DNA from: Candidatus Thorarchaeota archaeon
GTDB taxonomy: Archaea > Asgardarchaeota > Heimdallarchaeia > Hodarchaeales > Hodarchaeaceae
Assembly: GCA_048882505.1 (NCBI GenBank)
Contig: JBHLRO010000006.1
Location: 30,001 to 62,000 of the forward strand
DNA: 32,000 nt
Direction: 5' to 3'
Shown: positions 2,385 to 31,530 of the stretch, piece by piece
Position numbering within the stretch: position 1 is the stretch's first letter
How the letters are laid out: each line of letters opens with the position of its first letter
Translations under genes and position numbers: made by a program
Notes under the pieces: generated by a model
Told to the model about the DNA's origin: nothing
The model's input: only the letters and a program-made list of their open reading frames with translations
Database searches by the model: none

Positions 2385-3782
2385 ATGTTTCTAGCAGGCC
2401 TAAGTCTATTCGCTTTTGCCGCGGTGGCCGTCTCGATTGTCCTACTCTATCTTCAAGAATTTCTTCTTAGATATGATCTAACAGAGGCTACAGCTATATG
2501 GCCTCTCTTCATTTGGTTAAGCAACCTTTTATTCACTAGTCTACTTCTCTTGTCACTTCTTAGTTATTATCATGGACCTAGGAAGAGTCCCGTAGTTATA
2601 GGACTACCGAGTATACTATTGCTCTTGGGATGTATGAATGGTTTTTGGGGTTTATCAAGATTCAATGTCTATTGGAGAGGCGGCAAAATTCTGGTTTATT
2701 ATCTTGATAAGCAAGCAGAATTGATCAATTCTATCCTAATCATTCTGGCAATAGCAGGGAGCTTTTATCTGACTTCTAGCTCGTTTCTAGAGACAAAGGA
2801 AGATAGGGATCTTTGGTTGACGGTGGCCTTGCTAATCGCGCTCCTCGGTTTTTTTATCCCACGGACAGAAGCTTGGTCAATAACGGATCCCGTCACAGTG
2901 AAAATATTAGGTTTTTTGGTTTATTATTCATTCTTGGGGTTTTTTATGATCGCCTGGCTGTATCCAAAACCCTTTGCTGTAAAAACTAAGCAAATTATTG
3001 CAAAAATCACTCCAACATCCTTTAAAGACAATTTTCTCGACCAGTTACCTTTTCTCATTTATCACAAGAAAAAAATCCAAACCTTACTAATTATATCCAC
3101 CATAGGCGTAGTGTTGACAATCTTTGGGCCGAGGCTGTTTGAAGGAAGCGTGAAAATTTACCTTACAGCAGCTCAAGCAGTAGAGGAAGGTCAAGCTTTC
3201 TTTCTTGGAATTGTTAATGGCCAACAAGTTTTTTTTCACACAATAGGAACTGTGGTTCCACTACTGGTTACCGCCGTTTTAATTATCTTTGCTTTAGTAA
3301 GAGAAACACCGTGGCGTTCCGTGTTCTCTTATGGATTGAGTCTTTTCATTAGTCAAGTCTTACTTTCAATTTTCTTTAATCATGTCCTAAATCTGGAACG
3401 CGTAAATTACGAAGCGAATTCTCCTTTCATTTTGGGTTTTATTTTACCACCTTTGATAATTACCGTTTTAGTTTCATTTTTTGACCCCATGGAAGATGAA
3501 ACAATCTCGTTCTTCGAAAAGGTACGTCTAAAATGCATGCCTGAAGTTGTATATGGCTGCACGGTCTTATCTACGATAATGTTTGACACGTTCCTTTTTA
3601 ATTCTCCTACTGGGAAGATACTGGTAGGGGGAGGAAGTATCACGGATGGAATCTTTGTACTACCGATTTTAAACGTCTTCCTGATCCTGTTTACATATTC
3701 TCTTATCTCATTAATCATGGAAGTTATTTTCTCCAACAAAAAGGAAAACCAGGGGGAACAACCAAATCTTCGGTGTTCCTAG
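2385..3782 (+). CDS. Polytopic membrane protein with a C-terminal DUF1614-like domain
   Basis: Many hydrophobic segments. The C-terminal half has segments resembling DUF1614 motifs as I recall them: HTIGTVVPLL (NvGGaiiP), ILPPLII, VYGCTVLSTIMFD (AYisGtlGtliGaD) and VGGGSITDGIFV (IGGAGtfDGIF). Confidence 0.65.
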   Translation: MFLAGLSLFAFAAVAVSIVLLYLQEFLLRYDLTEATAIWPLFIWLSNLLFTSLLLLSLLSYYHGPRKSPVVIGLPSILLLLGCMNGFWGLSRFNVYWRGGKILVYYLDKQAELINSILIILAIAGSFYLTSSSFLETKEDRDLWLTVALLIALLGFFIPRTEAWSITDPVTVKILGFLVYYSFLGFFMIAWLYPKPFAVKTKQIIAKITPTSFKDNFLDQLPFLIYHKKKIQTLLIISTIGVVLTIFGPRLFEGSVKIYLTAAQAVEEGQAFFLGIVNGQQVFFHTIGTVVPLLVTAVLIIFALVRETPWRSVFSYGLSLFISQVLLSIFFNHVLNLERVNYEANSPFILGFILPPLIITVLVSFFDPMEDETISFFEKVRLKCMPEVVYGCTVLSTIMFDTFLFNSPTGKILVGGGSITDGIFVLPILNVFLILFTYSLISLIMEVIFSNKKENQGEQPNLRCS

Positions 3783-3875
3783 TGACGAATTTTCGGATCA
3801 CTAGTTCCATGATCTGAGTCTTTGTCAATTTAAGCAAGACCGATACCGATGAACGGGGCGGAGTCTGTTTAGAAT

Positions 3876-24847: not shown

Positions 24848-25747
24848 CTAGCGTAAATTAGAGGAGGTAGTTGATAGAATTTTGACAAAATTATCCCAGT
24901 TCAGATTCTCAGAGAACTGGTTTCCGTGCTTATAGTCTGTTGCCATCTTTTCAAATTCCTCCTTTATTCTGAGGGACGCGAGATAGTTAATTTTCTGAGC
25001 TAGAAGGACGATCATAAATTGGCGTTTGCCCCCTCTAACTTCTGGATCTTCAATCGTATCAAAGTAAATATAGCCGTCTCGGTCGATGTTTGCGATTCGT
25101 AATAAAACCCCTTGTGGCTCATAATAATCCAGCTGGCCGTAGACTGAGACCGCGGTTTGAAACAGCTGGGTGCCAAGCTGGCGTAAGTCAAACTTAGTGT
25201 TGGAATCTGATGGAAAGATATCTCTTACTTTGGGACCATAAGCTTCATCCCATATCACATTAAAGAGTATAACTTCTCCTCTTTCACTTGGGGTCATTGA
25301 AGAACCGAGCTCATTTCGCAAGGATGTAAGCAGGTTTTTTTCGATTTGTTTACCCAGTTCTTTGTTTTTTATACTCCGCTGGATCTTTCCGGCAATTGAT
25401 GATAACAAATCCTTGTCGTTGAAGGGTTTGGTGATATAATCATCTACTCCAAGTATTTTGCCAAAACGTACATCCTCAGGAGATGCTTTCGCTGTAAGAA
25501 AGATAAAAGGGATAAAACTCCACGCCGGGTTATCAGAAACACGGCTGAAAAATTCGTATCCGTCCATTTCCGGCATCATGATGTCACAGAGGAAGAGGTC
25601 TGGGGGTTCATCGAGTTCAGATAACATGTTGAAGGCTTCGATGCCATTTTTTGCGCCTATCGGCCTGTATCCATTGAATTCCAACAATAATTCCAGGTTG
25701 TAGAGGATTTTAGCATTATCTTCAATGATAAATATTGTAGGTTTCAT
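24848..25747 (-). CDS. Response regulator with C-terminal uDENN/longin-like output domain
   Basis: Complete receiver domain (EDN, D55 in CDIMMP, LTA, KPF). Residues ~157-290 carry VIWDEAYGP and TIEDPEVRGGKRQFMIV, resembling the two folliculin/SMCR8 uDENN signatures. Confidence 0.8.
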   Translation of the reverse strand: MKPTIFIIEDNAKILYNLELLLEFNGYRPIGAKNGIEAFNMLSELDEPPDLFLCDIMMPEMDGYEFFSRVSDNPAWSFIPFIFLTAKASPEDVRFGKILGVDDYITKPFNDKDLLSSIAGKIQRSIKNKELGKQIEKNLLTSLRNELGSSMTPSERGEVILFNVIWDEAYGPKVRDIFPSDSNTKFDLRQLGTQLFQTAVSVYGQLDYYEPQGVLLRIANIDRDGYIYFDTIEDPEVRGGKRQFMIVLLAQKINYLASLRIKEEFEKMATDYKHGNQFSENLNWDNFVKILSTTSSNLR

Positions 25748-28722: not shown

Positions 28723-30168
28723 ATGATACATAGCAATTCCCAACAATCACCCGCAGTTCAACAAGTAGAACTATCGTTTATTAGTGATTTCACTAAATAT
28801 TGGGACAAAATTAGGGATTTCTGTTCTGTTGAAAGGAGTACAGTTCGTTCTGTGTGTGCTAAACTATTTGAGGATTGGACAAAACCTTTTTTCGAGAGGT
28901 GGTCAACAACAGAACTAATCAAACCTTACTTGGTTTGGCGAAGTAATTATGCTTCCCGATTTTCTTCCTTCGGTCTTCTGTATAATGGGAAAATGCTGCT
29001 TATACCTCACAAACTCGTTTCTAATATTCTGGACTCCCAGGTCAGGGAGCATGTGTACTTTAGGGAGTTTACAGACATTAAAACCTTCTTCTATTACCTA
29101 TGGCAAGTAACTCAGGTTCAACAGAATTTTCCTCTAAATGCAAGTGATCTGAAACTTATCAGTTTTTATACGAGTTCGGGTTTTATGAGAACTTCTGCGC
29201 GATTCCCCTCGCAAGAACTATTAGCCGACGTGCTTTCTTGTAACCCAAGAACCATTTCTACACGAAGTACGCGGTTGTACAACCACTACATCCTAACACA
29301 TACATATTTAATCGATGTTGCCAAACTGGGTTATCAAACCATGGCATTTCTCTCACAAGATCCTTCAGATATACACGGTTCTCTTACGAAATATTGCCTT
29401 GGAACCCTTCCGATTGACTTAGGATTAACTCGGGGAAATCTAAAGATTTTTCAAATTCCGTATTGGAAACATGATGTTTTTAACGCCGTTACTGATAGTT
29501 TAGGCCCTGTTGCGGGATATAATTTAACCCAATTATCCATCAGTTGGAACCTCAGCCAGTTATCGACAAACCCAGACTCAAGATGGTTAAACGAACCACC
29601 AGTTCTCGTTGGAATCGCCTGGGATGATACAGACATCATTCTGGAGGATATTGGGGTCGATCTTAATTTGGTTCCAGATATCCAACAGAGTCCAGGAATC
29701 TCGAAATCACAAGCCAAACTATTGTCCTTTTACTATTCCCACGGCACAGTTCAAGATAAACAACTATCAGAATTCCTTGAATTAGACCCTCATAGTGTTT
29801 TTCGCCTTTGGCAAGACATTTTGGATAGAAACGTGGCGTACCCGTATACACACGTCAGCAATATAGGTTTAGATTTGTCTCTGTGGGTGATGCTTCTCGG
29901 AAAAACGAAGCAAGACAATTCGGATCTCGTTTCAAAAGTCGTTGCTCACCTTCGCTATTTCCCATATGCACGGACATTCTATTCCTCAGGGAATTCGAAC
30001 GAGGGTACGTTTTTGGTTGCAGAGATTAGAATTCCGTCACTTTGGTATAAGGATTTTGCTACGCATTGGGACAACCTTACTAATTACGAATTAATCCCCA
30101 AAGTGGGCGTATTAACACCCGAATTTCACTTGAAACGAAATATAAATGTTTTAGACACTCTTTTTTAG
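28723..30168 (+). CDS. Transcriptional regulator with two tandem Lrp/AsnC-like (wHTH + RAM) units
   Basis: PSQELLADVLSCNPRTISTRSTRL...IDVAKLGY and QDKQLSEFLELDPHSVFRLWQDIL...VSNIGL each fit the Lrp HTH-linker pattern. Confidence 0.7.
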   Translation: MIHSNSQQSPAVQQVELSFISDFTKYWDKIRDFCSVERSTVRSVCAKLFEDWTKPFFERWSTTELIKPYLVWRSNYASRFSSFGLLYNGKMLLIPHKLVSNILDSQVREHVYFREFTDIKTFFYYLWQVTQVQQNFPLNASDLKLISFYTSSGFMRTSARFPSQELLADVLSCNPRTISTRSTRLYNHYILTHTYLIDVAKLGYQTMAFLSQDPSDIHGSLTKYCLGTLPIDLGLTRGNLKIFQIPYWKHDVFNAVTDSLGPVAGYNLTQLSISWNLSQLSTNPDSRWLNEPPVLVGIAWDDTDIILEDIGVDLNLVPDIQQSPGISKSQAKLLSFYYSHGTVQDKQLSEFLELDPHSVFRLWQDILDRNVAYPYTHVSNIGLDLSLWVMLLGKTKQDNSDLVSKVVAHLRYFPYARTFYSSGNSNEGTFLVAEIRIPSLWYKDFATHWDNLTNYELIPKVGVLTPEFHLKRNINVLDTLF

Positions 30169-30345: not shown

Positions 30346-31530
30346 TCATAATGCCGAATACACGGGGACAACTGGGAACGTTTCGCGAACTATTCGATTT
30401 AAGGTTTCTGACTCTTCAGTAGAGGAATCCATCTCTGGAAAAGTTTTATATAATGACGCAATACGATTGGTTAAGATATCTAGCGAGTTTTTAAGAGCTT
30501 TAGAAGTGGTAGAAGTGACTATAATATAGCTAAGATTCTGTTGACGGTTTATTAAAAGGACTGAATCCTCCAGATGTAGTTCATGAAGACCTGAGGCAAG
30601 AGCGTCAACTACTGCTTTCATTCCTGGAAAAAAGGCATCTCGATTGTGATGGGGAACTGTGATCCAACTGTACGAAAAGAGTGGTTCCGTAGTGTCCGTG
30701 CGGATAATTACGAGTCGTGAGGAGTGAATGGGTAATACAAACAATAGTTTGGGTTCTGAGACAAAGGCAATCATGAAGAGAAAAGATCCAAACAAATGGG
30801 CTATTTCTATAAGTCCAATGTCTTGACCTACCAGTTGGGTAAACAGCATAATGAGAGCAAGAAGATACACAAACGCTCCTATCAATGCAATACTAGCCTT
30901 GTTCCTTATATCATCCGGTGCATTCAGGTAGAGAGTCCCCGTGTACAGAAGCAAGAGAAGGATTCGAAACCCCCAGAAGGAGAGCTGGATGTAATTTAGA
31001 AACACTGACACCGTCCTGGCCTCCACACCAGGAAGTAATGCGAAGACCACCATTCCAGTCGAGAGGATCGCGTATACGATTAGCTTAATGGGATCTAAGG
31101 ATGGCCGATGCGCGGAATCGACAAAGATAACCAAGAATATGGTAAATCCAGTCAAAATGAAAAATCCCGCAAAACCAAGAACATCTGCGAGGGTCATGGA
31201 TAATACTTCCCCCTTACTCGTTACTTTATACAGAGGAATCCCAATATCGGTCATTAGAACATTTATTGATAGGCTATTGGGATCAAAACCAAGTAAAAGA
31301 ATTTGTAATCCAAGTAACATAAACCAGGCAAACAAACCAGCAAAATCCAAGGAAAGCCACAAGAATTGCCTGTATTGCGTATCTATCCATCTTCTAAATC
31401 CAAAAACAAGGATTATGGAGATTATAAAGGCATGAAACAATGATATCAAGGAAATAAAGAGGAAATCTGCCATTACTTTCAAGTCCTCTGGCATAGTAAG
31501 GATAGATTGCCCTTCCTTGCCCCCCTCCAC
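30346..31530 (-). CDS. Seven-TM membrane protein with C-terminal longin-like domain
   Basis: Seven hydrophobic segments counted by eye, then EPKLLFVLP and a soluble ~125-aa domain (LVIIRTDTTEPLFSYSW...LHELHLEDSVLLIN...SYIIVT...LKNSLDIL...IVRETF). The true start may be ATG 31494. Confidence 0.75.
   Translation of the reverse strand: MEGGKEGQSILTMPEDLKVMADFLFISLISLFHAFIISIILVFGFRRWIDTQYRQFLWLSLDFAGLFAWFMLLGLQILLLGFDPNSLSINVLMTDIGIPLYKVTSKGEVLSMTLADVLGFAGFFILTGFTIFLVIFVDSAHRPSLDPIKLIVYAILSTGMVVFALLPGVEARTVSVFLNYIQLSFWGFRILLLLLYTGTLYLNAPDDIRNKASIALIGAFVYLLALIMLFTQLVGQDIGLIEIAHLFGSFLFMIAFVSEPKLLFVLPIHSSRLVIIRTDTTEPLFSYSWITVPHHNRDAFFPGMKAVVDALASGLHELHLEDSVLLINRQQNLSYIIVTSTTSKALKNSLDILTNRIASLYKTFPEMDSSTEESETLNRIVRETFPVVPVYSAL

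Follow-up and report, generated by a model that had tools for sequence, protein, structure and literature searches.

The locus raises the question of how a protein that joins a seven-helix membrane domain to a longin tail passes a signal inward, and whether that tail contacts a small GTPase directly. Behind it stands the wider question of how signals reach the small GTPases of Asgard archaea, and it is difficult to pair these GTPases with their regulators by gene order (PMC10933270). The gene lies in a 32,000-nucleotide stretch of a Candidatus Thorarchaeota archaeon contig, referred to here as the window. A preliminary description, made from the letters alone, had proposed a membrane sensor coupled directly to small GTPases.

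The open reading frame on the reverse strand at 30346-31530 contains no interruption. Translation likely starts at the ATG at 31473, giving 375 rather than 394 residues; this start is preferred because five of five close homologues and the database records begin there and a GAGGA lies upstream, and the GTG at 31530 was dropped in its favor. The 375-residue form, P0002, is the one recorded in the Atlas and in the protein collection, and residue numbers refer to it throughout. The close homologues carry NCBI labels of Heimdallarchaeota or Hodarchaeales, which point to an Asgard archaeon of Hodarchaeales type. Comparison with four of them gave dN of 0.2–0.37 with dS saturated (>1.5), which indicates that the gene has been maintained under purifying selection. 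An independent sequencing run from a second study reproduces positions 30437-31070 with 0 differences and 0 gaps and spans the junction with the neighboring gene. Scans for promoters, terminators and repeats found nothing above chance.

Table 1. Positions of the 7TM-longin gene, its parts and associated genes. Positions without a prefix refer to the window, and prefixed positions to the genome or locus named.
Feature	Position	Strand	Remarks
7TM-longin gene (P0002), 375 aa	30346..31473	-	ATG 31473, stop 30346-30348
Shine-Dalgarno-like GAGGA	31484..31488	-	10 nt upstream of ATG; putative function, from sequence
Seven-helix membrane domain and short helix, residues 1-245	30739..31473	-	N terminus out; GPCR/rhodopsin/CREST-type arrangement; probable distant HisKA_7TM relative
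Extracellular insertion of ~33 residues, loop 1, residues 62-95	31189..31290	-	columns filled in 5-21 of 116 rows
Conserved cytoplasmic motif, end of TM3 and loop 2	31084..31119	-	D119 94%, R123 72%, K130 93%
Cytoplasmic longin domain, residues 250-371	30361..30726	-	AF2 model, structure matches
Longin helix alpha1, residues 278-292	30598..30642	-	shortened by six residues relative to the family
Convergent neighbor, 481-aa putative tandem helix-turn-helix protein	28723..30168	+	adjacency not conserved; without Pfam family
Response regulator with folliculin-like tail	24848-25747	-	Pfam Folliculin E 0.12
Module copy in source genome	C6:104277
Module Arf-like GTPase	L111:5070-5654	+	corresponds to G000:C6 about 108570-109153
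Fn3 single-pass and two-helix proteins	L111:1982-3088 and 3112-3825	-
7TM-longin-HisKA-HATPase	L090:6155-8074	-
7TM-longin-HisKA-HATPase	L091:7001-8875	+
7TM-longin-HisKA-HATPase	L114:6988-8853	+
7TM-longin-HisKA-HATPase	L115:3-1628	-
7TM-longin-HisKA-HATPase	L117:3-1547	-
Winged-helix fusion	L116:2458-4485	+
Presumed split or degraded SecY/Sec61-alpha paralogue	L001:14062-15555	-	ORFs of 283 and 204 aa, one after the other

The hydropathy profile of P0002 has seven peaks, the weakest being TM5 (about 1.3), and the AlphaFold2 model, built with 116 homologues (pLDDT 87, pTM 0.84), shows seven long helices, then a short one (residues 241–245) and a longin topology over residues 251–365. An excess of Lys and Arg on the side formed by the TM1–2, TM3–4 and TM5–6 loops and the segment after TM7 is present in 116 of 116 members, which by the positive-inside rule places the N terminus outside and the tail in the cytoplasm. 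The helix count of seven and the inside position of the tail, both read earlier from the letters, are upheld by these results, and we take the modeled combination of a 7TM domain with a cytoplasmic longin to be real.

Structures that match the predicted helix bundle include a de novo GPCR-like fold (Z 14.7), ACER3 (14.1), Ste2 (14.1), mGlu5 (13.0) and rhodopsins (about 12), with rmsd near 4 Å and 4–12% identity, and AdipoR2 is also among the top membrane matches. Because the top rows are tied, identity is low and such Z scores are common for helical bundles, the likeness is evidence of a shared arrangement and not of descent. The arrangement and orientation of the seven helices resemble those of GPCRs (Ste2, mGlu, TAS2R and class A; Z 11–14.1, rmsd about 4 Å), as do the short helix after TM7 and a conserved motif of charged residues where TM3 ends on the inner side, whereas the output of the P0002 family is a fused longin. 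No heterotrimeric G proteins are known from archaea. Membership in class A is ruled out by the absence of D/ERY (0/116), NPxxY (0/116) and conserved TM3-ECL2 cysteines (at most 7/116 members). The preliminary description had claimed no homology to GPCRs. In its modeled fold the protein does resemble bundles of GPCR type (Z 13–14.7, 7–11% identity), tied with CREST hydrolases and a de novo design. Membership in the microbial rhodopsins is likewise ruled out: as had been noted, TM7 of P0002 has no Lys for retinal, and only 2 of 116 members have any Lys in that helix. A PDB sequence search with the family profile gave nothing under E 0.26, the rhodopsin matches being weak (E 0.26 and 2.1). CREST hydrolases bind zinc through SxxxH in the TM2 region and HxxxH in TM7; these motifs occur in 2/116 and 0/116 members, and membership in that group (ACER3, AdipoR) was rejected.

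Pfam searches with P0002 and the 116 members placed no family over threshold, and the gathering threshold of HisKA_7TM (PF16927), one of the families to which the membrane part had been suggested for comparison, was not reached. Local alignment by hhalign with a HisKA_7TM set of 11 sequences nevertheless gave a probability of 73% (E 3e-5, score 39); 20 shuffles scored no higher than 15.5, 16 other membrane families no higher than 26, and a reversed control lower as well. The global alignment reached 86% over 205 columns in helix register. The nearest named Atlas clusters carry HisKA_7TM in 10–29% of their members (score 0.82–0.84), a weak lead only. The similarity is thus found in the profiles (73–86%) and not at the Pfam threshold, and there is moderate support for the membrane domain being a distant relative of HisKA_7TM, its nearest relative in sequence, and not a member. 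HisKA_7TM is a sensor domain of bacterial and archaeal histidine kinases (for the archaeal kinases, PMC5847659). Like it, the P0002 membrane domain is N-terminal, seven-helix and N-out, in register helix by helix, and a small alpha/beta domain comes after it on the cytoplasmic side, with HisKA-HATPase next in the fused members; unlike in HisKA_7TM proteins, the next domain is a longin and not PAS-type, and most 7TM-longin members have no kinase.

The family is unnamed and widespread in Asgard archaea. It contains 299 representatives at 50% identity (E up to 0.001), its Atlas clusters are 93–100% archaeal, mainly Promethearchaeota, and full-length members occur in at least 12 Asgard families (12 of 28 sampled); the 208 of 251 genomes matched are an upper bound that counts in longin-only matches. 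The source genome alone has seven full-length copies. Conserved features face the cytoplasm, namely D119, R123, K130, P186, the PKLxYILPF linker and the longin, with a mean entropy of 2.42 in the inner half versus 3.04 in the outer half and 15 strongly conserved columns versus 1. A conserved inner and a variable outer face would suit receptors with differing inputs and a common output, and this pattern, together with the expansion of paralogues and the histidine kinase fusions described below, sustains the receptor-like role first proposed. A variable outer face can also mean that nothing functions there, as would be expected of an anchor or adaptor holding a longin platform at the membrane (in sorting or membrane remodeling) or of a lipid-handling protein or enzyme of CREST/rhodopsin fold. 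The presence of ACER3 and AdipoR2 among the top membrane matches and of adaptor and SNARE longins, not GTPase regulators, as best tail matches would agree with such a non-sensory role, but no His, Lys or other catalytic residue is conserved inside the bundle, one helix would be enough for anchoring, and the kinase fusions require a signal input; we judge this reading very unlikely.

Folded alone, the tail matches the VAMP7 longin (Z 12.9, rmsd 3.0, 113 aligned) and, more widely, the longins of VAMP7, Sec22, AP, COP and TRAPP (Z 11–12.9). Foldseek gave 10 matches at E up to 0.001, every one a longin, with AP sigma subunits at E 1.6e-4 (TM 0.68–0.74), and the earlier assignment of the tail to the longins is confirmed by these matches. 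Roadblocks scored below VAMP7 (Z 8.3–10.2 over 86–97 residues), the GAP-type longins FLCN, C9orf72 and GATOR1 (Z 8.5–9.3) scored below the SNARE and adaptor longins, and Fuz_longin_1 was matched weakly in Pfam by 4 of 116 members. Fold and topology are shared with the longins of VAMP7, Sec22, AP sigma/mu, COP zeta/delta, TRAPP, Mon1-Ccz1/Fuzzy and SR-alpha (Z 10–12.9; TM up to 0.74) at 4–18% identity. The position of the tail C-terminal to a seven-helix domain is absent among the structure matches to known longins, and the P0002 clade further differs from these in its short alpha1.

Longin dimers assemble through beta3 and alpha1, a long form of alpha1 accompanies dimerization, and the alpha1 face is where GTPases bind (PMC3747258). 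The canonical alpha1 of the family is highly conserved (LFSGMLQGI). Between positions 281 and 298, P0002 has 18 residues versus the 24 found in 107 of 116 members, leaving a predicted alpha1 of 12–15 residues, and this six-residue deletion is borne out, with no gap, by independent sequencing runs. The side-by-side dimer platform of the TRAPP and Mon1-Ccz1 type uses a long alpha1, with an alpha1' extension, together with beta3. The P0002 clade lacks the hairpin glycine, and of the glycines conserved in the family G262 is replaced by T/K and G288 by V/A. Since alpha1 is shortened and G262 and G288 are replaced, the surface on which the originally proposed GTPase mechanism depends is the part altered in the P0002 lineage. 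The GP motif in the beta1-beta2 hairpin, defined for the GAP-type longins FLCN, NPRL2 and SMCR8/C9orf72 and their Asgard look-alikes (PMC12290439), is present in 0 of 116 members; the 7TM-longin tails thus share the fold of these proteins (Z 8.5–9.3) without their motif. R310 at the end of beta4, 59% conserved and present in P0002, is at most a possible counterpart of the catalytic Arg (arginine finger) of the GAP-type longins.

These features bear on the possibility of a GPCR-like receptor, in which the tail, as a monomer, a homodimer or a heterodimer with a paralogue, would bind a small GTPase directly and control its nucleotide state. The presence of GTPases in most longin complexes (PMC3747258), the conservation of the canonical alpha1 as expected of a binding surface and the resemblance of the bundle fold to GPCRs are consistent with such a receptor, whereas the shortened platform helix of the P0002 clade, the absence of the GP motif and the greater nearness of the tail to SNARE and adaptor longins than to FLCN, C9orf72 and GATOR1 argue against it. 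By analogy with SR-alpha, a monomeric longin that still binds a GTPase (PMC3747258), direct binding would still be compatible with a shortened alpha1.

Some members carry fused outputs. Five are 7TM-longin-HisKA-HATPase proteins, two identified by Pfam (L090, L091) and three by sequence (L114, L115, L117); all belong to a single Asgard family and may derive from one single event. A winged-helix domain is fused in one further member (L116), and an alpha/beta-hydrolase in another (P0086, 630 aa). No GTPase fusion was present among the extended members examined, and a search for longer fused forms came back empty for the range 675–2000 aa, a result that carries little weight. That the 7TM-longin unit is a signal input is supported most strongly by the kinase fusions. 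The L090 and L114 fusions are followed by a gene for a 120-aa receiver-like protein, and that of L114 is positioned after a cluster of RNA polymerase and ribosomal protein genes. A subfamily of ~435 aa (L057-L070) has an extra helical tail and an adjoining winged-helix gene, the two being joined in L116. The L090 and L117 fusions are co-directional with two Rag-like GTPase genes, and since these two kinase fusions lie among such genes, GTPase and kinase outputs need not be mutually exclusive.

P0002 belongs to a five-member clade (support 1.0) whose other members are located in or beside a five-gene module encoding an Arf-like GTPase, a winged-helix-like protein, a two-helix protein, an Fn3 single-pass protein and a 7TM-longin. 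The module was seen in seven genomes or samples (G000, L107/L113, L109, L032, L033, L050 and L112). In the closest relative both clade copies are in tandem within the module, whereas in the source genome the P0002 gene lies 44 kb from the module copy. The gene is best explained as a relocated second copy of the module's sensor, and at that distance P0002 may act with other partners. The loop 1 insertion is confined to the P0002 clade and a few relatives, and the other module-linked 7TM-longin copies have Glu at the position of G284. The module GTPase has EIGGQ instead of DxxGQ in 7 of 7 orthologues, an amphipathic-looking N-terminal helix that lacks Gly2, and an acidic tail with a conserved KF at its end. 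Homology (hhalign 99.9%) links the cytoplasmic tail of the Fn3 single-pass protein with that of the two-helix protein, and a GP[FI]P motif is common to both; these tails gave no profile match to the 7TM-longin tail and are candidate direct regulators of the module GTPase.

At its present site the P0002 gene converges on the putative tandem helix-turn-helix gene, paralogues of which lie 4–8 kb from the home-module 7TM-longin in G062 and G253. Orthologues of the response regulator with the folliculin-like tail are found outside any similar island in three relatives. The position of the gene beside the window's GTPase/two-component island was rejected as evidence of a partnership, as orthologues of its REC-uDENN and tandem-HTH proteins occur in four relatives without an adjoining 7TM-longin. 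About 10 kb past the end of the window are two consecutive ORFs that, judged by eye, may be a split or degraded SecY/Sec61-alpha paralogue.

A small GTPase gene lies within about 7 kb of 21 of 60 7TM-longin loci (35%) versus a 20.5% background in the source genome, and is directly adjacent at 7 of 60, in three lineages, versus 4.1%; the 60 loci are related and not independent, so these counts are not a statistical test. The adjacency, the kinase fusions amid Rag-like GTPase genes and the about 75 small GTPases encoded in the source genome add to the case for a GPCR-like receptor, with the module Arf-like GTPase as its most likely partner, but the lack of GTPase fusions and the dependence among the loci weigh against it, and we consider it rather doubtful. 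L049, L051 and L052, from three related genomes, each have a tandem pair of 7TM-longin genes in direct convergence with a gene for a Rab-like GTPase. With kinase, winged-helix and hydrolase domains as the fused outputs, only mild GTPase enrichment nearby, an unconserved link to the window's GTPase island and a shortened alpha1, direct coupling to small GTPases, the core of the preliminary description, stays a proposal and would be one output among several; the description as a whole is supported in part.

The commonest direct neighbors are HTH genes, of one family at 12 of 60 loci and of another at 7 (19 in total), although these families were derived from the very loci counted, which makes the counts circular and lineage-bound. 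They raise the prospect of an input to transcription control without a GTPase, in which the longin would dock a winged-helix regulator or a histidine kinase in a ToxR/CadC-type or membrane-sequestration manner. The kinase and winged-helix fusions, the winged-helix-like gene of the home module and the putative tandem HTH gene abutting that of P0002 are in keeping with this, but an adjoining regulator may merely control the gene, and orthologues of the window's HTH protein have no 7TM-longin alongside; we hold this reading distinctly unlikely.

We consider the chances about even that P0002 is a membrane sensor whose longin serves as a general relay by docking another protein, probably a module product, with a GTPase reached indirectly. 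Computation shows the fold and topology, the distribution of the family, its fusions and its gene context; ligand, signal path and partner are inferred. The sensor would combine a prokaryotic HisKA_7TM-like input with the longin as cytoplasmic relay, filling the slot that PAS-type domains occupy in HisKA_7TM kinases. A stimulus acting on the variable outer face or within the membrane would shift the helices, and the conserved inner loops (D119/R123/K130 and P186) and a rigid TM7 linker would carry the signal to the longin, which would then dock its partner. In the P0002 clade the likeliest partners would be the module products, namely the Fn3 single-pass, two-helix, Arf-like GTPase and winged-helix proteins. 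Given the shortened alpha1 and the missing hairpin glycine, indirect contact with the GTPase is likelier than contact by way of a classical longin-dimer platform.

Both component domains are of known kinds. The papers searched contain no description of a 7TM-longin fusion. A 2026 preprint names '7TM proteins' among the Asgard families that Eme 2023 or Liu 2021 had reported, and an earlier catalogue entry for the family may exist. Liu et al. (bioRxiv 10.1101/2020.10.19.343400, Fig. 5c) described Asgard NPRL2-like longin fusions with two-component domains, which likewise join a longin to prokaryotic signaling domains; the text mentions no 7TM fusion, and the 7TM-longin family differs from those proteins in having no NPRL2/FLCN-type GP motif. 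New here are the fusions to kinase, winged-helix and hydrolase domains, the comparison with HisKA_7TM against controls, and the eroded platform and relocation of the P0002 copy.

The erosion of alpha1 beside canonical paralogues, such as C1:271411, in one genome is a natural experiment on the role of the platform helix, and the kinase fusions offer a measurable output for finding ligands. It is unlikely that the family forms a class of Asgard receptors whose membrane domain, of GPCR fold, acts on a small GTPase by means of the longin fused to it; if it did, it would be a prokaryotic forerunner or parallel of receptor-to-G-protein signaling, expanded in the lineage closest to eukaryotes. Throughout much of the phylum the family unites a prokaryotic sensor domain with a docking fold of eukaryotic type, and it is a concrete place to seek surface-to-GTPase or surface-to-kinase signaling that predates eukaryotes.
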